From a virus, in the IMG/VR virus record IMGVR_UViG_3300001681_000071, positions 1-64,000 of that record: a stretch of 64,000 nt of DNA; one strand, written 5' to 3'. The position numbers and the translations under genes were made by a program. Shown piece by piece: positions 3,015 to 38,604 of this stretch (position 1 is the stretch's first letter; every line of letters starts with the position of its first letter). A model generated the notes under the pieces. That model was not told the origin of the DNA. It made no database searches and saw only the letters and a list, made by a program, of their open reading frames with translations.

Positions 3015-3225
3015 TACAGATATAATTGTAATTAAGAAACGTTAAAGAATCTACCAATGGTACTAACAATGAATCAAGAATCACGCAAATTCATTTTACA
3101 ATTAAAAATAATTAGCACCACCAAAGAAGAAGGGGAAGTAGCTTGTTTTCACTACAACCCCATGGAGCGGAAATTTGATAGGAAATTTTTACGGCTAGTG
3201 GAAAACCGTGGCGGGAAAGATCACC

Positions 3226-3606
3226 CTACCACCTTTTCTTCCAACCGTTAACAAGAGACTGAGCCGGACCACTTGGTAACGATAGCGATACTCCTGGCCT
3301 TCTGGCTTTTGGCTGATGCCCAACGATGTGAAGCGTTTCGTAAATGTTCCCTCTGTTATCCCGACGAACCTTAATCGTTATACCAGCACCAAAGATAGTA
3401 GCTTTCGTATCTACGCTGGCTTTTGCTACTTCTAACAGTAGTTCTAAAGTGGGAATGTCCAAGATCATCTGAATGTTTCTGCCACAGGTGGGACCACCAA
3501 GAGTGTACTCACGTAGCACCTCGTCTTGTCCAGCTATCTGGAGGCACGTGTCCTTTCTCTTTACTTTTACTTCGTCCATAATTGGGGTGTTAGTGTCATA
3601 CATCAA
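3226..3606 (-). CDS. hypothetical protein
   Basis: 126-aa ORF overlapping the end of the upstream terS-like gene. Confidence 0.7.
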   Translation of the reverse strand: MMYDTNTPIMDEVKVKRKDTCLQIAGQDEVLREYTLGGPTCGRNIQMILDIPTLELLLEVAKASVDTKATIFGAGITIKVRRDNRGNIYETLHIVGHQPKARRPGVSLSLPSGPAQSLVNGWKKRW

Positions 3607-4339
3607 TCACCTCACGCAACCCAGAAACATCAATGTCCTTATCCTTAGATCGAATGGCACCAAGTACAGCTTGCAACTCGCAAACATCTTCATACATAGC
3701 TTCAACTATATCTTCGCCACGAGCCTTAGCATCACTGACCCTAACCGACTCAACAAGCAGCTTACCGCCATGCTTACCACTATCACCATCCGATAGCTCA
3801 GAACGCAACTGAAGTAACAAGGGCAAGTCCCTAAGAGTCCTACGAATCTCCTTATCTTTTATCCCCTGGGCTACATACCCAATAGCGGCATCAAGTAACA
3901 TCAAATGCTTGCGCTTCATCTCAGCGGTGAATATCGTTCCTTCATCCGGTCTGGACTCACGGATGCTTCGCTCTACCTCATCAGCTACGCCCTGAGACAA
4001 CGGAGAGATCGCTGTTAACGGAGCCATGATGTTCTTCTTTACAGCCTCGATCTCAGAGATGCCATACTTGTCGAAGTACAGCTCTCTGTAAAGTGCTTGT
4101 GCCTGAGACTCTACTGTTCCGCTCTGACAACGAGTATCCCAACTCCACCGAACCTTGAATTCCCTTATAGTCGTAGCCGCTCTGTCCAAAGCCCGTCCAA
4201 CAGCCCGTTGATTCCGTAGCTTAGGTGCTTGCATCGCCCACAATAACATGGCGCGGTGAGCCCTTTCCGACTCGCGCGGTTGGCGTGTCAATGGCCCCAT
4301 AGAACGAACGGGTTTATGCTTTTTTACCTTGTTTTTCAT
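3596..4339 (-). CDS. putative terminase small subunit (HTH)
   Basis: RQPRESERAHRAMLLW...RNQRAVGRALDRAATTIREFKVRWSWDTR resembles the ES..A..AF..Y...RS...VA..L......W...W..R TerS pattern; SD GGGGGA before ATG 4339. Confidence 0.55.
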   Translation of the reverse strand: MKNKVKKHKPVRSMGPLTRQPRESERAHRAMLLWAMQAPKLRNQRAVGRALDRAATTIREFKVRWSWDTRCQSGTVESQAQALYRELYFDKYGISEIEAVKKNIMAPLTAISPLSQGVADEVERSIRESRPDEGTIFTAEMKRKHLMLLDAAIGYVAQGIKDKEIRRTLRDLPLLLQLRSELSDGDSGKHGGKLLVESVRVSDAKARGEDIVEAMYEDVCELQAVLGAIRSKDKDIDVSGLREVIDV

Positions 4340-14007: not shown

Positions 14008-15222
14008 ATGGAACCCTTAGCGATAGCTACAACCTCTCAACCCAATAAGGGTGAGGATATAGATAAAGCCATACAGAGATACAATGGCTTTCAAGACGCT
14101 CTTAATGACGCCTTCTTAGAGATGGAAGACGAAGTTAGAGCAATACTCATTGGACTTATATCGAAGCACAACGTGTGGCTTATAGGTCCACCGGGAACAT
14201 CGAAGTCATTGTTGGTAGAAGTTATAAGCCAAGCAATGTTGGATGAAAAAGACCTTCCTATGGGCTTCTTCCAGTATTTGATAAACCGCTACACTACCCC
14301 TGATGAGCTTCTGGGACACTTCTCCTTGAAGAAGCTAAAGGAAGACGACCTCCAGGTGAGGCGCGTGGCTGGGAAGTTACCAGAGGCGATCTTCGCGTTC
14401 TTGGATGAGTGGGAAAAGGGTAACTCTGGAACCCAAAACTCATTGCTTACAATGATGAATGAAAGAAAGTACGATGTAGGTGACGGTACGCGAAAGAAAG
14501 CACCGTTAGAGATAGTAGTTGGAGCCAGTAACGGATACCTAAAGAGCCCAGAACTTGCCGCATTGTGTGATAGGTGGATGTTTCGTGTCGAAACCGGCTA
14601 TATCGTACAAGATAAGAACTGGGATAGGCTACTATTTGATAAGGACATTGGAAAGACTACATCGACCATTAAGTGGAGCGATATTCTCTTAATCCGTGAA
14701 CGCGCAGATAATGTAGACCTTAGTGGTCTAAGACAAGTTCTCCATGACATTCGACAAGAGCTAAGTGAACGTAGGATAGTGGTATCTGACCGACGTTGGC
14801 GAAACATTCCGCCAATTCTCAGAGCAGAAGCCGCAGTTAACGGTAGAACGAAAGCGATTGATAGTGATTGTGGTATTTTACGCCACGTTCTATGGTCTAC
14901 ACAAGAGCAGAAAAATGTGGTCTCTCAAATCATCAACAAACTATGTAACTCCGAGATGAACAAAGCCACGGAAGTCAAGGCGTTAGCTGATGGTATCTAT
15001 CAACAGCACATTGAGATGAAAAGCTCTGGCGTAACAGACTTGAACGAATGGAAGAAGATTAAAGGAGGAATAGAAGACCTATATGATGATTCACAGAGGT
15101 TAGATGCTACAGATAAGCAGATAATAGTGATCACAGATAGGATTAAAACCCAAGTTGAAGAGATCAAAGATCATTTCCGGTTCCTTGTTTATGGCAAGAA
15201 GCGCAACGGTCTTAGGAGGTAA
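14008..15222 (+). CDS. MoxR/RavA-family AAA+ ATPase
   Basis: Walker A GPPGTSKS, FFQYLINRYTTPDELLG, Walker B FLDE, NSLLTMMNER, GASN, ALCDR, VSDRRW. Confidence 0.9.
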   Translation: MEPLAIATTSQPNKGEDIDKAIQRYNGFQDALNDAFLEMEDEVRAILIGLISKHNVWLIGPPGTSKSLLVEVISQAMLDEKDLPMGFFQYLINRYTTPDELLGHFSLKKLKEDDLQVRRVAGKLPEAIFAFLDEWEKGNSGTQNSLLTMMNERKYDVGDGTRKKAPLEIVVGASNGYLKSPELAALCDRWMFRVETGYIVQDKNWDRLLFDKDIGKTTSTIKWSDILLIRERADNVDLSGLRQVLHDIRQELSERRIVVSDRRWRNIPPILRAEAAVNGRTKAIDSDCGILRHVLWSTQEQKNVVSQIINKLCNSEMNKATEVKALADGIYQQHIEMKSSGVTDLNEWKKIKGGIEDLYDDSQRLDATDKQIIVITDRIKTQVEEIKDHFRFLVYGKKRNGLRR

Positions 15223-23647: not shown

Positions 23648-24520
23648 ATGGAAAGGACGATAAGAATTGGCTCATTGTTTTCTGGTATTGGGGGGATTGA
23701 GCTTGGGTTAGAGTATGGTATTCAAAACTCTATAACTATTTGGCAAGTCGAGTCGAACGAATTTTGTCGCCAGGTGCTAAAGCGGCACTGGCCCAAGTCA
23801 AAAATCTATAACGATGTAAAGAAGGTAGGAAAACATAACTTAGAGCCTGTAGACATTATTTGTGGTGGCTTTCCGTGCCAAGATATTTCAATAGCCGGGA
23901 AAAGAGAGGGGATAAATGACGGTGCCAAATCGAGTCTTTGGTGGGAAATGTGGCGGGTTGTTAGCGAGCTACGACCCCGAATCGTCGTCATTGAGAATGT
24001 CTCAGCTATCACTTTTTCCGATGGCGGGGGATGGGAGTTACTACATTCCCTTGCCCAAATCGGGTACTCTTGCGAATGGATTGATTTACGAGCAAGTGAT
24101 CCCCCGTTCAACGCGCCACACGAACGAGAACGCATATTCTTTGTTGCCTACACCGACACCAGCACTGAATATGACCTCTCCTTCAATGATGAAACACCAA
24201 GGGCATCAGAACTTTCGTGCGCTATTGCCGACACCAACAACGAACGATTGCAAAAACACACCGGGCGGTGTAGCCCAATGGGAAAGGCACAGCAGCTTAA
24301 ATATAGAAGCCGCGAAGATGGCGGGACGAACAAAGACGACAATTGGAAAGGATTTCCGATTGAACCCCCGCTTTGTCGAAGAGATGATGGGATTTCCGAT
24401 AGGGTGGACAGACTTAGAGCGTTAGGGAACTCAGTTGTTCCGGCATGTAGTAGGTGGATTGGTAAGCGAATACAAGAGTCAGGTCTTTTAAGGAGAAGAG
24501 ATGCATCAACACTTCCATAA
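23648..24520 (+). CDS. DNA cytosine-C5 methyltransferase, large (alpha) chain lacking motif IX
   Basis: I SLFSGIGG, IV GGFPCQDIS, VI IENV, VIII APHERERIF, X RLRALGNSV. Confidence 0.92.
   Translation: MERTIRIGSLFSGIGGIELGLEYGIQNSITIWQVESNEFCRQVLKRHWPKSKIYNDVKKVGKHNLEPVDIICGGFPCQDISIAGKREGINDGAKSSLWWEMWRVVSELRPRIVVIENVSAITFSDGGGWELLHSLAQIGYSCEWIDLRASDPPFNAPHERERIFFVAYTDTSTEYDLSFNDETPRASELSCAIADTNNERLQKHTGRCSPMGKAQQLKYRSREDGGTNKDDNWKGFPIEPPLCRRDDGISDRVDRLRALGNSVVPACSRWIGKRIQESGLLRRRDASTLP
23916..24425 (+). CDS. nested alternative-frame ORF, putative beta chain of the C5 methyltransferase (motif IX)
   Basis: LLPTPT twice and RLNPRFVEEMMGFPIGWTD; own SD GAGGGG before ATG 23916. Confidence 0.75.
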   Translation: MTVPNRVFGGKCGGLLASYDPESSSLRMSQLSLFPMAGDGSYYIPLPKSGTLANGLIYEQVIPRSTRHTNENAYSLLPTPTPALNMTSPSMMKHQGHQNFRALLPTPTTNDCKNTPGGVAQWERHSSLNIEAAKMAGRTKTTIGKDFRLNPRFVEEMMGFPIGWTDLER

Positions 24521-25049
24521 AAATTTAAACGTTAAGAATATATTGTCACGATATAAACCATCGACAATTGTAGAACTTGGTGGGCTTAATGGAGCCAATA
24601 CTTTACAGTTACTCACGATGGGCAAAGTCATCACTATAAGTGATAATAAGATGCCCGATAAGCTCTCTCCTTTCGTTAAGAAAGGCGAACTAAAATGGAT
24701 ACAAGCACTATCGTTTAACGCTCTCAAATCATTTGCTGATGGCTCTATTGAATTCGCTAGTGTTGACACTGACCACAATTACACCACTCTAAAGTTAGAA
24801 CTTATAGAATTAAAAAGAGCAATGAAGAAAGATGGTGTTGTTGTTTTACATGATGTTGAAACCTTTAAGAATAGAAACAACCAACATTATACTCTTGAAT
24901 ATGCCAACGGAGAGCCATATAACTTTGCTCTAATGACACAAGGCCATAGCTACACAGCGGCTTTGACAGAAGAAATACAAGAGGGCGAATGGAAACTGTT
25001 GGATTGGTCAGAAGCGAGCAACGGAGCAGCGGCTATTATCAAAACTTAG
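24501..25049 (+). CDS. class I SAM-dependent methyltransferase (Methyltransf_24-like)
   Basis: IVELGGLNG, VDTDHNY, GVVVLHDV. Confidence 0.75.
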   Translation: MHQHFHKNLNVKNILSRYKPSTIVELGGLNGANTLQLLTMGKVITISDNKMPDKLSPFVKKGELKWIQALSFNALKSFADGSIEFASVDTDHNYTTLKLELIELKRAMKKDGVVVLHDVETFKNRNNQHYTLEYANGEPYNFALMTQGHSYTAALTEEIQEGEWKLLDWSEASNGAAAIIKT

Positions 25050-25050
25050 G

Positions 25051-25521
25051 TTACCTCTCCATCGCAGAGAAGCGAGGTGTTCTTCTTTTTTCATCGAAGA
25101 TCAATAGACAAGAAGGAGCCGGTGCTGAATTTGGTGCCTTTTGAAATTTGATACGTCCCCTCACAAGCCTAATTTCAGCCGCCCTCATAGCCCAATCGTG
25201 CCACCACTTGGTGTCTGTACGGGCAAATGTCAAGCAAACCACCGTACAGCCTTTGGTACTCTCCCAATACGATTTCTCAATCCATTTGCCCACTTCTCTC
25301 CCGTAAGGAGGGTTGAGCCACACTGCCTCTCCGCGAGAAATTTTATGCCATGGCAAACTCAAAGCATTCCGGGTCAGGTATAGAACACATTTATGGTTCT
25401 CAGCAGAGGCAGCAGCGTCCAATACAAAATTGAATTCATCATTGATCTTATTAAAGAAAGACCACGGAGTTCCCCAATCTTGTTTTTTGCTACTGAACAG
25501 TTTATCCTCGGACCAACTCAT
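25051..25521 (-). CDS. phage DNA N6-adenine methyltransferase
   Basis: DWGTP, F.LDAAAS..N.KC, WLNPPYG, ARTDTKWW, GRIKF. Confidence 0.9.
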   Translation of the reverse strand: MSWSEDKLFSSKKQDWGTPWSFFNKINDEFNFVLDAAASAENHKCVLYLTRNALSLPWHKISRGEAVWLNPPYGREVGKWIEKSYWESTKGCTVVCLTFARTDTKWWHDWAMRAAEIRLVRGRIKFQKAPNSAPAPSCLLIFDEKRRTPRFSAMER

Positions 25522-25522
25522 A

Positions 25523-25681
25523 TTACTCCCACTTAACTTTCAGTCCTGGTCGCCATGCTGGTTCCCATGGAAGTCTCCAATCTCTTTGTATCTCCCCTGA
25601 TTGCTTTTCCGGCTTATGTTTGGGTTCTTCCTTCTGCGCGATCTCCGCCTGAGTTACCTTTTTTTCCTTTTTCATTTTCAT
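25523..25681 (-). CDS. small hypothetical protein, not in the ORF track
   Basis: 52-aa ORF ending 1 nt before the methyltransferase start. Confidence 0.4.
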   Translation of the reverse strand: MKMKKEKKVTQAEIAQKEEPKHKPEKQSGEIQRDWRLPWEPAWRPGLKVKWE

Positions 25682-25850
25682 TCCTTATAGAGTATTTGGT
25701 TTAACCATAAATGCTCAACGCCCAGGCGATGGCCTACGCGAACTTGGCTTATTATATTTATAGGTGAAATACACCCATGCCTTTAGAGGCTGAAGTGGGG
25801 CGGAGCGTAGAATTTTCTGGGCCATAAAATATCACTGGTTTATAGATTGT

Positions 25851-26801
25851 TTAGAAGAAGTTGTCTGCGTAGTCGGCTATTATTCCAAAATCTCTGAATA
25901 GTTTGCACCTATCAAGGTCTATGCCAACAATCCTTCCATTTAATTCTGACAAGTATTCTCTGCCAAATACAGCCTGTCTTGCCCTGTAAAGCACACCAAA
26001 GCTTTCACCTGTCTGAGACACCACCTTTTGTATCCTCATGTGCATACGGTCTATGTCTCGACCCACGTAGTATCTTCCTTTCTTCAATCCATGGAAGTCA
26101 CACAGCAAACTCTCTGTTATTGCCATATCTACGCCTAATCTTGCGTATTCTGGGTACTCAACTACACTCATTGATAGCTGTTTATGTATCCATCTGGCAT
26201 ATTCTTCCAAAACAACGCTTGGCGATGAGTTTGCCATACCAGTAATGTCGCATACTCCCCTCCTTGGGCCAGAGGCTTCGTCTATTTCCATGGTGGATGG
26301 TATTACATCGAAAACGTTAACCTTATGAAACATATCGGCAGATGTATAAGCAGCCCATCTGCCATTACCCCACACAGTTCTCAGATTGTTAAGAAGTGTT
26401 TTCCAATTGTCTTCTTTGGAATTGGTAAAGTCCTTCGTAAGATATTCTTTAGCACCACCGTTCTTAGATAATTCAACCAAGCTATTTATATGTTTCGTAA
26501 CACTGGTTGTTATAAGATTTCTGCGCTGTTTGCCTATATGAAGCTTATCGTAGTCCTCTGGTATACGTGTTGGATAAGGGTAGCGGAGGAACGTATAATA
26601 GGCAGAAGCCGGATTATAGAAGGCCATATAAAGAAATGATAACCACACTGCCTGTTCTGGATCCAGCCCTTTCTGTACCTCTATTAAAAGACCATGGAAC
26701 GGATCATAGTCCTTTGTTTTCAACTGCTTTCTCGCAAAGTCGTTAAAGTAAAACCACGTATCCGACTTTTTTACGCTGTCTGGATTTATGGTAGTTATCA
26801 T
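25851..26801 (-). CDS. amino acid:DNA transferase (AADT / aGPT-Pplase2 family)
   Basis: DYDP, WLSFLYMAFY, QRR, GNGRWAAY..AD, SGPRRG, ESLLCDF..L..GRYYVGRDID. Confidence 0.8.
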   Translation of the reverse strand: MITTINPDSVKKSDTWFYFNDFARKQLKTKDYDPFHGLLIEVQKGLDPEQAVWLSFLYMAFYNPASAYYTFLRYPYPTRIPEDYDKLHIGKQRRNLITTSVTKHINSLVELSKNGGAKEYLTKDFTNSKEDNWKTLLNNLRTVWGNGRWAAYTSADMFHKVNVFDVIPSTMEIDEASGPRRGVCDITGMANSSPSVVLEEYARWIHKQLSMSVVEYPEYARLGVDMAITESLLCDFHGLKKGRYYVGRDIDRMHMRIQKVVSQTGESFGVLYRARQAVFGREYLSELNGRIVGIDLDRCKLFRDFGIIADYADNFF

Positions 26802-27703
26802 TCTTTTCCCATTGGTTCTCTACATATTGGAAGAGTTAGACAAGCAAAACCACCCCCTAATTTCCTTATCTCGTTCATTTTGCTTTTATAAACTACTATT
26901 CCATTGTCTTCTAATATAGACTCGGTTTCAGGACAGTCATCTGGCATCAAAACAGAGTTTGGCGAAAGTGTAATCCAATTCATGGATAGTTTCTCGTTGA
27001 CCTCCTTGCTCGGTTTTAGATGTATAATCTCACCCGACCACTTAAAATTCTCTGTATCACTTCTGGTAAATAATCGTGTCCCAACAATGCGGTTTCCACC
27101 AAGTAAATGTTGTGGAATAGATGGGCCGAACTTATCAACATACTGCACTATACATCGTGTCTCATGGGACCAGAATTCAATTGCCTTTTTCTGGCTTCTG
27201 CCACCACAAGCAACACTAAAGGAGCCATCATTCATTATTAAGATGTCAGAAGCCTCAACAAAACCAATCATCAGTTTCATTGGAGAAGAATAATTACACC
27301 GAAACCACTTCATAATATAGTCAGCTTCACTACTCCTATGGGCTAACCCAGAGCGTGTAACATAAATCACATCACCAACTATTTTCGCCATATCGCGAAC
27401 AAACATTGAGTCAATGCTTTTACCACTACAAGCCTCATTTATATCCAAAACCTCTACTCCCAGACCCCGTAGCTTGGAAGTTAAAGAATCGAATTCCGTC
27501 AGTAATGTGTCATGGTTTGGAAGCTTAATCCAAGATGGCGGAGGCAAAGATGGCGGAGGCAAAGATGTACGTGAAGATAGAGTCATACGTGTATGCGAAA
27601 ACACTTCTGCATGAAATTTCAGATTGGTTGGGCGATTGACCAACACCGTAAACAGGTTCCCTGTTTCGTTTGTAATAAATGCACGCTTTTTATGTCCAAT
27701 CAT
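26798..27703 (-). CDS. amidinotransferase/ADI/DDAH (pentein) family enzyme
   Basis: NETGNL..VLV.RP, MFVRD, EASD (EGGD position), His in QHLL, C-terminal GGGFACLTLPICR with the catalytic Cys. Confidence 0.82.
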   Translation of the reverse strand: MIGHKKRAFITNETGNLFTVLVNRPTNLKFHAEVFSHTRMTLSSRTSLPPPSLPPPSWIKLPNHDTLLTEFDSLTSKLRGLGVEVLDINEACSGKSIDSMFVRDMAKIVGDVIYVTRSGLAHRSSEADYIMKWFRCNYSSPMKLMIGFVEASDILIMNDGSFSVACGGRSQKKAIEFWSHETRCIVQYVDKFGPSIPQHLLGGNRIVGTRLFTRSDTENFKWSGEIIHLKPSKEVNEKLSMNWITLSPNSVLMPDDCPETESILEDNGIVVYKSKMNEIRKLGGGFACLTLPICREPMGKE

Positions 27704-28787
27704 TTGAAGTCATCGGATATAAAAGCTGTTTCATAATCGTTCGTATTCTTTCTTTTTTTGCGAAAAGTAGTATTTCCTCTTTTCTTTTGTGCCATCTATA
27801 CTTCTTAGGGGAACTTGTTGCCATAGTGAGTTTAAGATCAATCGGATGCGGGGGCTCTATACCAATGTCCCTGCAAATCGTATGAATCATTCTTTGGGGA
27901 TGGGCTACAACTTCTTCAAACTTATAAGATAATGATATATTATATTTAAGTGCCATCGAATGTGCGTTTGCCCACTGGTTCAAACAAACCTCGATCAGCC
28001 TTTTGTTTTTGTCGTCATACCAGCCTGGGTAAAGGTCAAAACACCACCAATTATAATAATTGTAATTCTTAATATTAAGCCCTCCGACCTTGTAAGCAAA
28101 AAAGGCCCTTTTGTGCAACCATCCATCCATAAGTCCATTAACAGTAGCCGCAAAAGAACGTTTGAGATGTATATATTGAATCTCGCTAACGGGGAATAGT
28201 TCTTTAAATAAGCTTGGCCTATACACATTTTGCGGTGTTTTAAAGATGATGACCTTGCCACTTAAAGACAATGGATAAGAACATGCTGTTGGCATGACAA
28301 ATGGCGGTTCTTCCAGTATCACCTTGTGTTTTTGTGCTTCGCGGTCTTCCAATTTTCCATCGTACCAACTTTGGTCTACATCTTCAAATCTTGCCGTATC
28401 CTTGCCAGGCCATTGTAGTATCTTTCTTATGTGTATAGAATTTATAAGATGAGACTCTACACTAATATGCTTGTGACAAAGTTCTCCGCGCACAAGCGTT
28501 TTCAATTCTAATATATTATCAATTTTATCTAGTCTGTTCCCGCACAAGTAATCCTCATTCACAGCATTGCCAGTTAGCTTTAAATAAGGCTCTATCTCGC
28601 CTTGTAGGCTCACTACACTTGGGCTTCTGCTCAATACATCGAATAAACAACTACTCCCACTCCTTGAGGCCGTAAGAATTACAACTACTTTCTTTGGTTC
28701 GCCTATTGGGGAGTTGAGCAGTTTTCGGATATTGTTTTTTGCTGCCCCTATTTGATGATCATTCGGTTTCAACAATAGTTCTGGCAT
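27690..28787 (-). CDS. PAPS-dependent sulfotransferase family protein
   Basis: 5'-PSB loop ILTASRSGSSCL..VL..SP, KTP, IHLKR, FEEVVAHP...I..IC..IG. Confidence 0.8.
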   Translation of the reverse strand: MPELLLKPNDHQIGAAKNNIRKLLNSPIGEPKKVVVILTASRSGSSCLFDVLSRSPSVVSLQGEIEPYLKLTGNAVNEDYLCGNRLDKIDNILELKTLVRGELCHKHISVESHLINSIHIRKILQWPGKDTARFEDVDQSWYDGKLEDREAQKHKVILEEPPFVMPTACSYPLSLSGKVIIFKTPQNVYRPSLFKELFPVSEIQYIHLKRSFAATVNGLMDGWLHKRAFFAYKVGGLNIKNYNYYNWWCFDLYPGWYDDKNKRLIEVCLNQWANAHSMALKYNISLSYKFEEVVAHPQRMIHTICRDIGIEPPHPIDLKLTMATSSPKKYRWHKRKEEILLFAKKERIRTIMKQLLYPMTSNDWT

Positions 28788-29313
28788 TTGTATTGATCCA
28801 ATCTATTACTATCTCTGAAAGGGCTTTGGGGCTTTGCTTGCCATCTAAAATCAAACGGTCTCTATTCTTAAACATGTTAAAAAAGTTCTTTGCCTTTGTC
28901 TCCCTTCCCTTTAACCAATTTGCATTTTGATTGGACCCACGTTCTTTCCTACGTTCCACAAGAACATCATTTGGCAAATCTATCAATATACAAAAGCACC
29001 CGTCAGCGAATTCATTAACATATTCAAGACAGTATTTTGTAGAGAACCTATCGCCATCAAATATGGTGACAGAGTATTTTTCATTAGCCAGAAGAAAGCT
29101 ACTCCAATACTGCAAAGACTCTTTGAAGGCATTGTATGGAACGGTATCGCCACCATCGAACGTCTTCCCCAAGTAATGACCAGACAGTATGATGTTGTTT
29201 GTAAGGGTCCACTTTGGCTTAACTACAAACTCTGTATCGAATGGGTCAATATAGTTTCTTAGCATGGTTGTTTTTCCACAACCAGGAGAACCAACAACCC
29301 AAACTCCTATCAC
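28759..29313 (-). CDS. P-loop nucleotide kinase of base-hypermodification clusters (5-hydroxymethylpyrimidine DNA kinase-like)
   Basis: GSPGCGKTT, G.Y..KTFDGGD, DGDRF, RRKERGSNQ..NWLKGRETK. Confidence 0.78.
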   Translation of the reverse strand: MIGVWVVGSPGCGKTTMLRNYIDPFDTEFVVKPKWTLTNNIILSGHYLGKTFDGGDTVPYNAFKESLQYWSSFLLANEKYSVTIFDGDRFSTKYCLEYVNEFADGCFCILIDLPNDVLVERRKERGSNQNANWLKGRETKAKNFFNMFKNRDRLILDGKQSPKALSEIVIDWINTNARTIVETE

Positions 29314-30230
29314 AATGACTCCAGCTTTCTGGTGTTGTATTTCTTGGCCCTTTTAAGCTCCTCTTCTGGGGATAAGCAGCCAAGGATACGGTTTCTAAGA
29401 TACATAACTACGCTAACTCGATACCAATCCTTATTCTTTTTTCCTTCGGCTTTTGGAGGAATATTGCCGTGCCATACAGCAGGGTTAAAAAGTATAAAAT
29501 CGCCATGCCGCATATTTACAGCCAAGCTAAATTCTGGAAGGACCAATTCAAATCCAGAATAATCTCCGTGTCTCATGGCAAACATGCAACCAAAACCTTC
29601 TTTAAGGTCGCCACTGTCTTGATGATAAGCAGCACACACCGTATTATTGACGGAGATTGTTGAAAATGGTGTGCCAGGTACTACCCAAGCTGGATGAGCT
29701 TTGTTTGCAAATTCTGTTTGTATCTCATGGAAGTTTGGCAGCAAAGACTTATAGATCCGCGAACACTTCCGCAAGTGTTTGGCAATTTTTGCCCATTCCT
29801 CTGGGTGGTCGCGTGTATACGTTGTTGCTCTACAATATGGGAAGCGACCTCCAACGCTCTCATAAAATCCACCTATAGAGCTGTAGACGGAGACCATTCT
29901 GCCATTTTCATCTAATGATCTCTCTGATTTAGATAATGTGCCATCCTTTTTGATTACCCGACTTTGCTTGTATCCGGCATATGCCGCCCTTGCATCTGAT
30001 GGGTATCTCATAAATTCCCTATATGGCTTTCTCACTTCTTCCAGTTCTTCGTCAGTGAAACATCCACGCCTCATAAGTATAATGGGTATACCATTGCTGC
30101 TATATACATCACAATTGCCGTCTATTATTAGACCATAATGGTTAGGTCTTGGATGGGTAGATTTCCAAGGCTCTATCTTTTCAGCCGATACTTTCGACCT
30201 TACCACTATCTTCATTGTTTTCATTATCAT
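29310..30230 (-). CDS. TET/JBP-family 2OG-Fe(II) dioxygenase
   Basis: PFSTISVN, HQD (HxD), GDL..GFG, WHGN (distal His), RVSVVMYLR (2OG-binding Arg); phage-type YCRAT region. Confidence 0.88.
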   Translation of the reverse strand: MIMKTMKIVVRSKVSAEKIEPWKSTHPRPNHYGLIIDGNCDVYSSNGIPIILMRRGCFTDEELEEVRKPYREFMRYPSDARAAYAGYKQSRVIKKDGTLSKSERSLDENGRMVSVYSSIGGFYESVGGRFPYCRATTYTRDHPEEWAKIAKHLRKCSRIYKSLLPNFHEIQTEFANKAHPAWVVPGTPFSTISVNNTVCAAYHQDSGDLKEGFGCMFAMRHGDYSGFELVLPEFSLAVNMRHGDFILFNPAVWHGNIPPKAEGKKNKDWYRVSVVMYLRNRILGCLSPEEELKRAKKYNTRKLESL

Positions 30231-30963
30231 CACCACCAAGACGCTTGTACTCTGCCATTACCGCTTCATAAACTGTATCTGGCATATTATCCGTGTCATA
30301 TGCGTATGATAACGACTTACAAGCCATCTTGAATTTTTGGCACTTCTCGTTTTCAAATATAAGCTGAATCATTCTGGAAGTAGAAATAGTTGGATTATCT
30401 ATCGTGATTACATCTTCGGCAATTGCGTCTTCATCTCCAGAATCCCAGACATTAGTAACGGTAGAATTTTCTGTTCTTCCACCAGCACCAGCATTGGCAT
30501 CATTGCCACTATACTTTTCATCGGGAGGAGCAAAGAAGTCTAAGGAGTCGTCTATTCCCCCAAAGGAATTGATCAAATCATCCATTTCACTACCAGTGAA
30601 GCCAAGCATCGTTGGATCAAAATCTGCAAGTTTGGCTAACTCTTCTAAGTGGTGTGCAAGCATAGCCTCATCCCATCCGGACAGTTCTCCAGAACGATTG
30701 AGCCTAATAGATAATTTTCTTGCTACCTCATCGGATACGTCCAAATAAACTATATTTGTTGTTTCGTATCCGAGTTCCTTTAAAACCTTTAGCCTTGCAT
30801 TCCCAGCAATAACCATTTGGGTTGTTTTCTGAACAATTAACGGCTCTACCTGCCCATGATCTTCAATGCTATCTCGTATAGCTGCATAGTTTTGTTCATT
30901 GTGTTTTCTTGGGTTTTGCGGATCATAGACAAGTAAATCAACTTCAACTTCGGCATATTCCAT
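30181..30963 (-). CDS. ParB/Srx N-terminal domain protein
   Basis: PQNPRKH...IRDSIEDHGQVEPLIV...IAGNARL...LNR..ELSGWD. Confidence 0.85.
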   Translation of the reverse strand: MEYAEVEVDLLVYDPQNPRKHNEQNYAAIRDSIEDHGQVEPLIVQKTTQMVIAGNARLKVLKELGYETTNIVYLDVSDEVARKLSIRLNRSGELSGWDEAMLAHHLEELAKLADFDPTMLGFTGSEMDDLINSFGGIDDSLDFFAPPDEKYSGNDANAGAGGRTENSTVTNVWDSGDEDAIAEDVITIDNPTISTSRMIQLIFENEKCQKFKMACKSLSYAYDTDNMPDTVYEAVMAEYKRLGGDDNENNEDSGKVESIG

Positions 30964-30972
30964 CTTTAAACC

Positions 30973-31239
30973 TCACAAGTTTCTAATTATCATATATGCT
31001 AATTCCGAGATCAACACGAATAGAAATACAAGTATTATCCTGGGATAGAACAAATAATCAGAATTTTCTTCTTCGGGAGGTGGAGACATAATCAATAAAA
31101 GGTAAGGGGTATCATTATCGGAAACAGGGACAGATGAAATTATCATCCATTTCTTTTCTAATAAAGACAAAAGCTGTGGTTGGTTTATAGACTGTTCCAA
31201 ATTCAACAGGTCTATCCTAATTATAGCGTTGGTAGCCAA
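30973..31239 (-). CDS. small membrane protein
   Basis: C-terminal hydrophobic helix; SD GGAGG before TTG. Confidence 0.6.
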   Translation of the reverse strand: MATNAIIRIDLLNLEQSINQPQLLSLLEKKWMIISSVPVSDNDTPYLLLIMSPPPEEENSDYLFYPRIILVFLFVLISELAYMIIRNL

Positions 31240-31286
31240 TAGTGACCTCCATGACTTACTGAATTAGTATAACTACTTATTATTTT

Positions 31287-31532
31287 TTATCCACTTTTTG
31301 GGTATACAGCCGTACAATCCTTCCCAATACAAAACATTCGATGCTGTCCTTCTGCATCTAATACTATCCATCTCTCTGTATGTATACTATGTCGCATAGT
31401 CTCATCAATGCACAGTTTCATAGCATCATCAAGCGATGATGAAGGAACCACAGTGTATAAAGATCCTTTCTTGATTGTAAGATACTTCCCTTTGTTGTTG
31501 AACAAACAGTCTTTTATGATTTCATACTTCAT
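31287..31532 (-). CDS. hypothetical protein
   Basis: 81-aa ORF in the operon. Confidence 0.65.
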   Translation of the reverse strand: MKYEIIKDCLFNNKGKYLTIKKGSLYTVVPSSSLDDAMKLCIDETMRHSIHTERWIVLDAEGQHRMFCIGKDCTAVYPKSG

Positions 31533-31540
31533 GTGCCACC

Positions 31541-33457
31541 CTACTTTGGTATAACGACCCTTGCGTTTCTCTTACCGGCTGGCGTTAAATTCCAACTATC
31601 AGCATAGATACAGGCCAATGGATCAAAAGCCATTACACAGTGAGAGCCAGCCTTTCCAAACTCACTTCTAACTTTATCAAGGTATACAACTGTTGATGGT
31701 TTAGAGTCTTCGCTTTTTATAGGCAGTCGCTGAACAACAATCCCAACGTGAGCATCTTGTCTAATCGCACTTGCTCCCTTTAGGTCAGTTATCTTCACCC
31801 TGCGTTGCTGACTAACGGACAGATTATTAGGATGGCAAACGAGAACAATCGTTATATTGTCATTGATAGCAATAGTAGCCAATCGTCTGACTGTACTTTC
31901 TATAGCTAACCTCTCATCCATATTGCTTTCTGGTTTCGTTAAGAACCCAAGGTGATCTATTAAAGCTATCTTTAGATCGTGTCTGCGAACAGAATATCGG
32001 ATAGTTGAAATTACCTTCTCAACATCGAGTTCTCCATAGTGGTCTAAAATCATAATGGGCAACTTGCCAAGTTCTTCACACGCAATACGCCTTTGTGCCT
32101 CGGAATGTCTTGTGAAGTCATTGCCTAATTGATGGCGCAATAATTTCTGCACTGTTCCTATTGGCCTTTGTTCAAACGATGTAAGCAGAACCGGAACACC
32201 ACGTAATGCCTGTTCCCACATCAACCATGTAGCCCATGTGGTTTTACCGTGTCCAGTATCCCCCGTAACCACCCATAAGCCGGGTCTGATACCTCCAAAT
32301 ATGGCATCCAACTTTTGACTTCCCATAGGCAAACCAGCAAGACTCTGTGGATTTTTTATGAGTTCTTCTATGTCATCGCTATAGCTATCAACATTGCGAA
32401 GTGTTGCCTCAAAGTAATCCTCATAGTTCGATAATATGTCTCCTATTGTGGATGCTTTTGCCTTTTGTTGTAATGCTTCGCCAGGGTCATTATACTGCTT
32501 ACTTCTTATGCGGAAACAACGAAATTTCCCAAGTTTAGAGGCCAATTTCTCAGACCCTTCATCACCTGCTTTATCGTTGTCATACCAGAGATAGAACCCC
32601 TGATAAGGCTCCATAGAATCGAGCCATTGGGTACACCAGTTTGCGCTCGCTCCAGTTGTGCCAGAAACCACTGTAGAACCGTATCCATACGTCCTAAGAG
32701 CCAATACATCAAGTTCTCCTTCTGTCACTATTACAAACTTACTTTTATCTTCCGATAACTGATCGAAGCCGTATAAAGGCATTGGCCTTGAAGGACAGAC
32801 TCTATAGGTTTTCATATCTGGAGGTACAGACCTAAACCTCATGTTAACTATCTTCCCAAATCGGTCCTTCAACGGTATAACGAGCCAATTCTTTCCCCTT
32901 GACTTCATATATCCTAAATTAGCATCACGAATAACGCTTTCACTTATACGCCTAGTCTCTATTAGATAGTCAAGTACAGGTTTTCCTTCATTGCTAAATA
33001 AGTTACCAGCATAAATATCTGGCAATTTTTCATCCCAGCGAAAGATGCTTGAACCTGACGGGTCGGGTGGAGATGTAAACTCTTTTCTTACCGTATTATC
33101 AAGCAAACCGTCTATCGTTACAATCTTCTCTTTTGCCTTTTCTAAAGAAAATCCATTCTCTAGCGCCCAATTTAGTACCTTTTTCTTCTGACCTGGCCCA
33201 GAAGACCTGTATAGGTTTCCAACAACCTTACACGACACTAAGTCCGTCATGCTTCCGTGTGATTTACAAACATGACAACACCAGCCACTACCATTGGACG
33301 TTACTCCAATTGGGAATCTGCCATCCTCACTTCCTCTTTTCATTGCACGACATTTTGGGCATGGACCCCAACTTCCGGCCTTTCCTGATTTTAGGCCAAT
33401 TTTAGGCCCAATCTTAACTATACCAGCCTTGTTCATAATCTCAAACGCAGTCATCAT
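31541..33457 (-). CDS. DNA primase-helicase (T7 gp4/Twinkle-like)
   Basis: Zn finger CPKC...CHVC; TOPRIM EGELD and DNDKAG; SF4 helicase GDTGHGKTT, IDHL, DLKGASAIRQDA. Confidence 0.93.
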   Translation of the reverse strand: MMTAFEIMNKAGIVKIGPKIGLKSGKAGSWGPCPKCRAMKRGSEDGRFPIGVTSNGSGWCCHVCKSHGSMTDLVSCKVVGNLYRSSGPGQKKKVLNWALENGFSLEKAKEKIVTIDGLLDNTVRKEFTSPPDPSGSSIFRWDEKLPDIYAGNLFSNEGKPVLDYLIETRRISESVIRDANLGYMKSRGKNWLVIPLKDRFGKIVNMRFRSVPPDMKTYRVCPSRPMPLYGFDQLSEDKSKFVIVTEGELDVLALRTYGYGSTVVSGTTGASANWCTQWLDSMEPYQGFYLWYDNDKAGDEGSEKLASKLGKFRCFRIRSKQYNDPGEALQQKAKASTIGDILSNYEDYFEATLRNVDSYSDDIEELIKNPQSLAGLPMGSQKLDAIFGGIRPGLWVVTGDTGHGKTTWATWLMWEQALRGVPVLLTSFEQRPIGTVQKLLRHQLGNDFTRHSEAQRRIACEELGKLPIMILDHYGELDVEKVISTIRYSVRRHDLKIALIDHLGFLTKPESNMDERLAIESTVRRLATIAINDNITIVLVCHPNNLSVSQQRRVKITDLKGASAIRQDAHVGIVVQRLPIKSEDSKPSTVVYLDKVRSEFGKAGSHCVMAFDPLACIYADSWNLTPAGKRNARVVIPK

Positions 33458-38052: not shown

Positions 38053-38604
38053 TCATACTATATCCAAACTTACATCCGAAATGACTTCATCACCCCAACA
38101 ATCCCAACCATCAACTCTTCTTCTTGCGAACAATTCTATTTTGTTTTGAACAGGGAACATATCCTCTATCCTTTGACGTACTTCTTCCGGCTTCTGGCTG
38201 TGTTTTGTGCGCTTTGAGTATACATACTGCCTTGCGTTCCTTATGCCTCTTGGTTGCGGAATACGCCCCCTTTTACCCAGCAAACAGAGTTCGCACTGAG
38301 ACATTGTGTAAAATCCTGGGTTTACTCTTACTTTATCCCACACAAAACCGACTGTAGCCCACTTGAAACCCCAAGACCTCATAAGGTCTACCGCTTGGTC
38401 TAAATGCGGGTTAGTTGTCCACATGAATAGCAAACAATCATCGTCACAGATAGAAGTAACATTAAGACGTTTAAGGTCTTTGAGCTTTATGGTCGAATAA
38501 TGAGAGATAGCTCCTCCGGTATCTATCCCACCTTCACCGTTATGTTGTTTTTGTCCTTTGTAATCCCATGGTGGGTCCACATAAATGACTTGGTACTTTT
38601 TCAT
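38053..38604 (-). CDS. MT-A70 family adenine methyltransferase
   Basis: YQVIYVDPPW, LFMWTT, WGF, E.CLLG.RG, HSQKP, KIELFAR. Confidence 0.9.
   Translation of the reverse strand: MKKYQVIYVDPPWDYKGQKQHNGEGGIDTGGAISHYSTIKLKDLKRLNVTSICDDDCLLFMWTTNPHLDQAVDLMRSWGFKWATVGFVWDKVRVNPGFYTMSQCELCLLGKRGRIPQPRGIRNARQYVYSKRTKHSQKPEEVRQRIEDMFPVQNKIELFARRRVDGWDCWGDEVISDVSLDIV

Follow-up and report, generated by a model that had tools for sequence, protein, structure and literature searches.

The first 64,000 nucleotides of the IMG/VR virus record IMGVR_UViG_3300001681_000071 (hereafter, the window) hold, on the minus strand at 27690–28787, an open reading frame (ORF) that sequence profiles and a structural model identify as encoding a genuine sulfotransferase-fold protein. 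The best reading of this evidence is that its product is an active sulfotransferase dependent on 3′-phosphoadenosine 5′-phosphosulfate (PAPS), and that it works with a guanidino hydrolase resembling dimethylarginine dimethylaminohydrolase (DDAH), encoded by the gene immediately downstream, as a two-enzyme module. It is tentatively proposed, with slightly less than even confidence, that the two enzymes together convert a side chain derived from arginine into a sulfonated amine carried by a hypermodified thymine. Sulfated DNA is, at this stage, a prediction.

Fold and motifs of the phage sulfotransferase

The ORF encodes 365 residues from an ATG start codon, and the assigned start is probably right, since the N-terminus MPELL is kept in a metagenomic homologue of 69–74% identity. 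The Pfam match to Sulfotransfer_3, at 27.1 bits, barely exceeds the cut-off of 27, and no NCBIfam model covers the protein. A profile built from 19 family members, however, matches the sulfotransferase (ST) domain of CurM (E 4.2e-10), the ST of an olefin synthase (OLS; E 3.7e-9), and the protein tyrosine sulfotransferase TPST1 (E 1.4e-3), and the family extends to 660 representative clusters at E ≤ 1e-3. The AlphaFold (AF2) model has a pLDDT of 87.7 and a pTM of 0.89, and its VIA-align superpositions reach Z 14.7 with CurM ST (4gbm; rmsd 4.3, 220 residues aligned), Z 14.3 with OLS ST, and Z 14.3 with TPST2 (3ap2_A; rmsd 3.9, 224 residues aligned). Every one of the 50 best structural matches listed is a PAPS sulfotransferase, and Foldseek agrees. 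The sulfotransferase proposed in the first-pass annotation is, thus, upheld, and the kinase fold that it had named as the opposing outcome appears in none of those 50 matches.

The motifs expected for PAPS binding, also reported in that annotation, are present with one exception, a glycine at residue 218. The 5′-phosphosulfate loop consists of S41-R42-S43-G44-S45-S46, which aligns with the SPRSGST of CurM ST, and R210 is the 3′-phosphate arginine, aligned with its counterparts in CurM and the TPSTs. Residues S41, R42, G44, S45, G63-E64, K183-T184, R210, N217-G218, W247-W248, D251, and R331-W332 are invariant in the 19 phage members. Among them, K183 aligns with the lysine of CurM ST, within a weak-scoring segment of the hidden Markov model, and E64, which lies in a G-E-x-E motif 18 residues past the phosphosulfate loop, is by its spacing the putative glutamate base, a residue that we take to be equivalent to the catalytic bases E99 of TPST2 and E60 of CurM.

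A guanidino-hydrolase partner in phages and bacteria

The sulfotransferase gene of the window is one of six minus-strand genes arranged head-to-tail with overlapping ends, which encode, in order of transcription, a ParB-like protein, a TET/JBP-type dioxygenase, a P-loop kinase, the sulfotransferase, a DDAH-like protein of the pentein fold, and an amino acid:DNA transferase (AADT). Direct reading of the DNA shows that the sulfotransferase gene overlaps both of its neighbours, as the first-pass annotation had described; its overlap with the 3′ end of the kinase gene is 29 nt, and that with the start of the pentein gene 14 nt. The start of the AADT gene overlaps the pentein stop by 4 nt. Kinase and AADT are encoded together in one overlapping operon, and the hallmark of clusters combining a 5-hydroxymethyldeoxyuridine (5-hmdU) DNA kinase with an AADT is therefore present.

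An alignment-based scan of viral contigs recovered 18 loci of the family and a metagenome scan 80 more, while a scan of genomes gave 251 bacterial matches, 80 of which were retained; a scan of viral contigs with the single sulfotransferase sequence, in contrast to the alignment-based one, gave no loci. Among 165 unique loci, 159 hold a guanidino-hydrolase gene within 3 kb of the sulfotransferase gene (152 of them within 200 nt), and in four of the six unpaired loci the downstream sequence is shorter than 1 kb. The partner is a pentein in 41 of the paired loci and a member of the arginase family in the other 118. In three phage loci (L013, L015, and L159) the arginase-family gene occupies the place of the pentein after the AADT gene, which reads as a non-homologous replacement. 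The recurrence, in the same place, of two unrelated hydrolase folds acting on the same substrate group argues strongly, on comparative grounds, that a guanidino compound, in the simplest case an arginine-derived one, belongs to the chemistry of the system.

The assignment of the pentein is consistent with this role. Its family profile matches DDAH from Pseudomonas aeruginosa (3rhy) over the full length (E 3.9e-22), with Cys288, His199, and Glu150 aligned to the DDAH triad C249, H162, and E114, and with R123 and R169 aligned to R85 and R132, which we take to bind the substrate carboxylate in DDAH. All five sites are invariant or nearly so in the pentein family. A complex prediction for sulfotransferase and pentein scored 0.00, which provides no evidence either way, and no same-frame fusions of the sulfotransferase to neighbouring genes were found. 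Long ORFs at high-GC bacterial loci were rejected as artefacts.

The phage sulfotransferase loci fall into three types of hydroxymethyl-pyrimidine cluster. Type I, with the gene order ParB, 5-methylpyrimidine dioxygenase (5mYOX), kinase, sulfotransferase, pentein, and AADT, is found in the window, in a second complete virus of 79 kb (L008), and in L010 and L118; these clusters match gene for gene, at 36–45% protein identity for all seven genes. Type II holds a P-loop kinase (with Walker A and WDRG motifs), the sulfotransferase, and the pentein in the same order as the window, surrounded by two to three thymidylate-synthase-like genes, an APH-like kinase, a guanylate kinase, and ribonucleotide reductase. 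Its P-loop kinase is unclassified, and its contigs, of 16–132 kb, are estimated to be 10–70% complete. In type III, a 5-hmdU DNA kinase accompanies the sulfotransferase and the AADT, as exemplified by L013, where a PF18748 gene lies directly upstream, and by L016 (PF18723, E 3e-62). Loci L013, L015, and L159 share the order 5-hmdU kinase, sulfotransferase, AADT, arginase, and the trio of AADT, sulfotransferase, and guanidino hydrolase is present in L014 and L166. The ORF that follows the pentein gene in L014 (10045-10596) has no Pfam match to a pyruvoyl decarboxylase. Since these architectures include both post-replicative oxidation and pre-replicative hydroxymethylation, the sulfotransferase accompanies both routes to 5-hydroxymethyl-pyrimidines, and its recurrence beside 5-hmdU kinases and AADTs, or beside hydroxymethylases, strengthens the earlier view of the gene as a member of a DNA-modification operon.

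Some of these clusters hold further genes of interest. An APH/protein-kinase-like phosphotransferase lies between two thymidylate-synthase-like genes at L004:10744-11685, with homologues in L002, L005, L007, L009, L011, and L012, and could act on hydroxymethyl-pyrimidines, in DNA or as nucleotides, as a kinase outside the P-loop class. Genes resembling homing endonucleases (NUMOD3 with a TnsA-like N domain; GIY-YIG) are found inside or beside type II modification clusters, and also adjoin the gene for adenosine 5′-phosphosulfate (APS) kinase (L009:6640-7500, L012:8504-9229, and L181:603-1457). The 188-kb viral contig L014 encodes at 3219-4292, 2.6 kb upstream of its AADT-sulfotransferase-pentein trio, an adenylosuccinate synthetase homologue (PF00709, E 1.5e-53). 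This protein could be of the PurZ type, in which case the jumbo phage might use 2-aminoadenine besides a hypermodified thymine.

Bacterial members of the family are found in a cassette with a HemK/PrmC-like methyltransferase, the sulfotransferase, and an arginase-family protein, and with none of the phage genes, in Oxalobacteraceae, Comamonadaceae, Sphaerotilaceae, and some candidate-phyla genomes. It is exemplified by L022:7234-10027 from Undibacterium sp., with 117 further genome and metagenome loci, and has also been found in Kerfeldbacteria, Parcubacteria, and one metagenome-assembled genome of Woesearchaeota. Genes for an NMT1/THI5-like binding protein and for hybrid sensor kinases often lie on its flanks. 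By maximum likelihood, the bacterial sequences group in a single shallow clade (98/99 support) whose sister is the type II phage clade, and types I and III are deep and long-branched; most of the diversity of the family is therefore viral. In the 50,697 GenBank phage records searched, tblastn with three sulfotransferase family members gave no match, and the module may have been overlooked so far for this reason. A megablast search with the operon gave no match either.

The supply of PAPS differs among these phages. APS kinase, ATP sulfurylase, members of the CysD/PAPS-reductase family, and CysQ-type phosphatases are all missing from the whole 79,172-bp genome to which the window belongs. The first-pass annotation, which had looked for the first two in the window, was therefore correct in that this phage must rely on the PAPS of its host. 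Two type II phage records that bear the sulfotransferase (L180 and L181), however, encode APS kinase (E 7.6e-74 and 9.5e-73; 244 and 238 bits with Pfam), and no other gene of the sulfotransferase family is recognisable in the sequenced parts of either record (31–42% complete). A phage that converts host APS to PAPS is hard to explain unless its sulfotransferase is active and consumes much PAPS, although at that completeness another client for PAPS is possible. In both records the APS kinase gene is followed by a small cytidylyltransferase-like gene (PF01467), at L180:1429-2382 with 2384-2950 and at L181:1420-2079 with 2305-2787; its product might be a minimal sulfate adenylyltransferase. In one of the two records the APS kinase is fused to a HAD-like domain, and a CMP-sugar synthetase-like gene lies upstream of the APS kinase in one of them.

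Proposed pathway and competing explanations

According to the proposed pathway, the ParB-activated dioxygenase would generate 5-hydroxymethyluracil (5-hmU) in replicated DNA, the P-loop kinase would phosphorylate it, and the AADT would exchange the phosphate for an amino acid of the arginine type. The hydrolase would then remove or convert the guanidino group, exposing a nitrogen nucleophile, which the sulfotransferase would cap with SO3, drawing on host PAPS. The product predicted from this scheme is a thymine whose amino-acid side chain is sulfonated, as a sulfamate-type group. Hydrolase and sulfotransferase might also act earlier, on the free amino acid ahead of its transfer by the AADT rather than on the DNA-bound adduct. 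The analysis shows the fold, the motifs, the operon, the conserved pairing, and the APS kinase of related phages; the acceptor, the order of the steps, the choice of arginine, and the DNA-bound or free state of the substrate are inferred. An arginine-derived side chain would offer only nitrogen acceptors, given that the operon encodes no hydroxylase besides the base dioxygenase, and N-sulfonation after unmasking has a precedent in the N-deacetylase/N-sulfotransferase of heparan sulfate (NDST), by which an amine is first unmasked and then sulfonated. Of the two acceptors considered in the first-pass annotation, the hydroxymethyl base and the appended amino-acid or guanidino group, the comparative evidence leans toward the second, because of the near-invariant guanidino-hydrolase partner from either of two unrelated folds.

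Several observations weigh against this scheme. An AADT is undetectable in the type II records, one of which is 70% complete, by an AADT alignment search that matched its positive controls, and the module is therefore not always AADT-dependent. Moreover, the 118 bacterial-type cassettes among the 159 paired loci contain no DNA-modification genes, from which it follows that the core substrate of the family need not be DNA. A further weak point of the scheme is that the ureido product of a pentein and the amine (plus urea) of an arginase converge only if the pentein works as a dihydrolase or a DDAH-type enzyme. The closest solved relatives are O-sulfotransferases, not N-sulfotransferases, and the canonical serine that binds the 3′-phosphate, eight residues after the arginine, is replaced throughout the family by the invariant Gly218, although the invariant Asn217, seven residues after R210, might take over this contact. 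Finally, most sulfotransferase homologues and their penteins are acidic (pI 5–7), an argument of little weight, since the AADTs at the same loci span pI 5.5–9.5, and charge is thus not diagnostic of DNA binding.

One competing explanation is an activating sulfation: O-sulfation of hmU (or hmC) in DNA at its 5-hydroxymethyl group would provide a leaving group for a nucleophile, and the sulfate would be absent from the final base. CurM ST and OLS ST, the nearest solved relatives by both sequence and fold, are activating sulfotransferases, benzylic-type sulfate esters are good electrophiles, and type II clusters, which hold hydroxymethylases and the sulfotransferase with no detectable AADT, would need another route of activation and transfer. 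Nevertheless, a second activation of the same hydroxyl looks redundant, since each architecture includes a kinase (in types I and III a 5-hmdU DNA kinase, recognised or probable, and in type II the unclassified P-loop kinase), the sulfotransferase exists without hydroxymethyl-pyrimidine genes in the 118 bacterial and metagenomic loci, and the near-obligate hydrolase would be left unexplained. Activating sulfation is, for these reasons, considered unlikely, and less likely than the sulfonated-amine reading. A reversal of the last two steps, by which the guanidino group is first N-sulfonated to an N-sulfoguanidine and then cleaved by the hydrolase, with sulfate as a handle rather than the final decoration, would account for the obligate pairing and for the similarity of the operon pentein to DDAH, as DDAH-type penteins are specialised for N-omega-substituted arginines. 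This order seems distinctly improbable: from a sulfoguanidine, hydrolases of the arginase and DDAH types would release different products, both hydrolase folds handle unsubstituted guanidines without activation, and we know of no precedent for enzymatic N-sulfonation of a guanidine.

The substrate might also lie outside DNA altogether. Sulfotransferase and hydrolase would then modify proteins, peptides, or free metabolites that do not end up in DNA, possibly for host takeover or to make a small molecule, and the position in the operon would reflect only co-regulation. TPSTs, which sulfate protein tyrosines, are structurally as close as the CurM domain (Z 14.3), arginine in proteins or peptides is a substrate both for peptidyl-arginine deiminases, which have the pentein fold, and for peptide arginases of the arginase family, a HemK/PrmC-like protein methyltransferase accompanies the enzyme in the bacterial cassette, and the mostly acidic members of the family would suit such a target. 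The phage gene, however, is wedged between those for a DNA kinase and an AADT with overlapping reading frames, the same position recurs in distant phages (30–45% identity) and in rearranged clusters, and no conserved small ORF that could encode a peptide precursor was found beside the bacterial cassette. A target other than DNA is accordingly judged somewhat less probable than activating sulfation. Very improbable is that the protein retains the fold without the activity, or employs a different donor or reaction. The missing 3′-phosphate serine, the borderline Pfam score, and the lack of PAPS-supply genes in the genome of the window would fit such a loss, but deep branches of the family retain without variation the phosphosulfate-loop arginine, the putative glutamate base, the lysine, the 3′-phosphate arginine, and the C-terminal Arg-Trp, and two phage records bearing the family encode APS kinase.

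Should the sulfonated-amine reading hold, for which the case falls a little short of an even one, phage DNA would carry a thymine with a side chain derived from arginine or ornithine on its 5-methylene, the chain being capped by sulfamate (or sulfate) and the base being made by a conserved module in dozens of uncultured phages. To our knowledge, the groups added in known thymidine hypermodifications are without exception neutral or cationic, for example amines, amino acids, polyamines, or sugars. Thymidine hypermodification as such has been described before, and the novelty would lie in the sulfotransferase-hydrolase module and in a sulfonated base. With its sulfonated side chain, such a base would represent a new chemical class of natural DNA modification and would place a fixed negative charge in the major groove, with altered consequences for the evasion of restriction and CRISPR, for DNA packaging, and for protein recognition, and its enzymes could serve for site-directed DNA derivatisation. 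The sulfotransferase and the guanidino hydrolase constitute a testable two-gene module, widespread in uncultured phages, and the uncharacterised methyltransferase-sulfotransferase-arginase cassette of Burkholderiales and candidate-phyla bacteria probably shares its core chemistry.

The operon, its neighbours, and known systems

The window represents the first 64 kb of a record of 79,172 bp with a CheckV completeness of 100%. The virus is uncultured and known solely from metagenomes, the DNA read sets with its sequence being hydrothermal-vent and marine metagenomes; no RNA sequencing run is among the listed runs with sequence from this virus. A scan of 24900-31700 for promoters and terminators gave nothing exceeding shuffled controls. 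The genes of the operon and its surroundings are collected in Table 1.

Table 1. Genes of the modification operon and other features of the window.
Feature	Position	Strand	Evidence
ParB-like protein	30181-30963	−	Pfam ParB_N E 6.8e-8; PHROG 620 E 2.2e-35
TET/JBP-type 5-methylpyrimidine dioxygenase (5mYOX)	29310-30239	−	Pfam Tet_JBP E 2.2e-21
P-loop kinase	28759-29313	−	Pfam Ploopntkinase3 E 8.9e-7, 29.1 bits (cut-off 27)
PAPS-type sulfotransferase (TPST/CurM-ST-like, Sulfotransfer_3)	27690-28787	−	Profile, AF2 model, motifs
DDAH-like pentein (guanidino-group hydrolase)	26798-27703	−	DDAH 3rhy profile match; Pfam ADI E 1e-5
Amino acid:DNA transferase (AADT)	25851-26801	−	Pfam ADDT (PF18724) E 1.2e-19
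C5-cytosine DNA methyltransferase	23648-24520	+	Pfam DNA_methylase E 4e-41; faces operon
Methyltransf_24 gene	24501-25049	+	
Dam-like N6-adenine methyltransferase	25051-25521	−	
MT-A70 methyltransferase	38053-38604	−	
MoxR-type AAA ATPase	14008-15222	+	bpMoxR E 1e-38; AAA_lid_8, AAA_5

The ParB-like protein is the probable activator of the adjoining dioxygenase, which, judging from its relatives, probably converts thymine to 5-hmU after replication, and the P-loop kinase is a probable 5-hmdU DNA kinase. The dioxygenase has been assigned to the ParB-dependent subclass because of the adjacent ParB gene and the linked kinase and AADT genes, and thymine is its likelier target, as this subclass oxidises thymine. 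Methylated cytosine is still possible as an alternative substrate, which the C5 methyltransferase encoded 5 kb away could supply. A thymidylate-synthase-like (dUMP) hydroxymethylase was not found anywhere in the 79,172-bp genome. Among cultured phages, the AADT has its nearest relatives in actinophage proteins of about 30% identity, which are themselves uncharacterised. Given the four methyltransferase genes besides the operon, the phage DNA probably carries several modifications. The MoxR-type ATPase gene lies in the plus-strand early region, beside large ORFs devoid of Pfam matches.

The operon resembles the thymidine hypermodification pathways of phages M6, ViI, PaMx11, PhiW-14, and SH-Ab 15599, which are based on a 5-hmdU DNA kinase together with an AADT or DADT (PMC8989533, PMC5889632, PMC13458397). 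As in the M6/ViI-type pathways, a kinase and an AADT homologue (PF18724) are encoded in one operon, the pathway starts from 5-hmU, and tailoring genes lie between or beside them. However, the tailoring enzymes of those pathways are decarboxylases dependent on pyridoxal phosphate, radical SAM isomerases, FAD oxidases, and acetyltransferases, unlike the sulfotransferase described here, and their 5-hmU originates from a dUMP hydroxymethylase, whereas in the window its source is probably a post-replicative ParB-dependent dioxygenase. The ParB-dependent 5mYOX subclass (clade C1) oxidises thymine and is linked to P-loop kinases and AADTs (PMC13229309), an arrangement that the window reproduces, with ParB adjoining a TET/JBP-type oxygenase and with linked kinase and AADT genes. 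Sulfotransferases go unmentioned in the main texts of two key papers on the thymidine pathways and of the paper on ParB-dependent dioxygenases. The word is absent from PMC8989533, whose main text also lacks terms for arginine, guanidino groups, deiminases, and sulfation (its ten matches to "sulf" are reagents and iron-sulfur clusters), and the main text of PMC13229309 mentions no sulfotransferase, amidinotransferase, pentein, or deiminase among the linked genes. Among the papers searched, none links sulfotransferases with phage DNA hypermodification, and none describes a sulfo-group modification of DNA.

Regarding the enzyme itself, CurM ST and OLS ST (PDB 4gbm, 4gox) provide the best match in profile and fold, with a PRSGS-type loop, a corresponding arginine position, and, within the weak-scoring segment noted above, a corresponding lysine. 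These are domains of polyketide synthase (PKS) modules, followed by a thioesterase (TE) that eliminates the sulfate. The phage protein, in contrast, is a stand-alone enzyme of 365 residues, and no PKS or TE domain is found near it, so that the module embedding typical of CurM does not apply. It also differs from both in an insert of about 30 residues with an invariant WWxFD and in its paired guanidino hydrolase. TPST1 and TPST2 (PDB 3ap1, 5wri; Z 14.0–14.3) share the RSG(S/T) loop and, about 18 residues further on, a G-E-E at what is presumably the position of the catalytic glutamate (Glu99 in TPST2). Nevertheless, TPSTs are Golgi membrane proteins acting on peptide tyrosines, with about 16% identity to the phage enzyme and a profile match of only E 1.4e-3.

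In the biosynthesis of clethramycin and mediomycin, the PAPS sulfotransferase Slf and a guanidino-removing amidinohydrolase of the arginase family act in either order on one arginine-derived molecule (PMC5704753), which differs from the phage module in that the substrate is a polyketide, a hydroxyl far from the guanidino group receives the sulfate, and there is no linkage between the two genes. NDST follows the logic of the proposal: a hydrolase unmasks an amine, which is then N-sulfonated by a PAPS sulfotransferase whose domain (PDB 1nst, 8cd0) superimposes on the phage model with Z 11.8–11.9. The analogy is functional only, since NDST is a single fused protein that acts on a glycan and removes an acetyl group, whereas the phage module consists of two separate proteins, of which the hydrolase would remove an amidino group.

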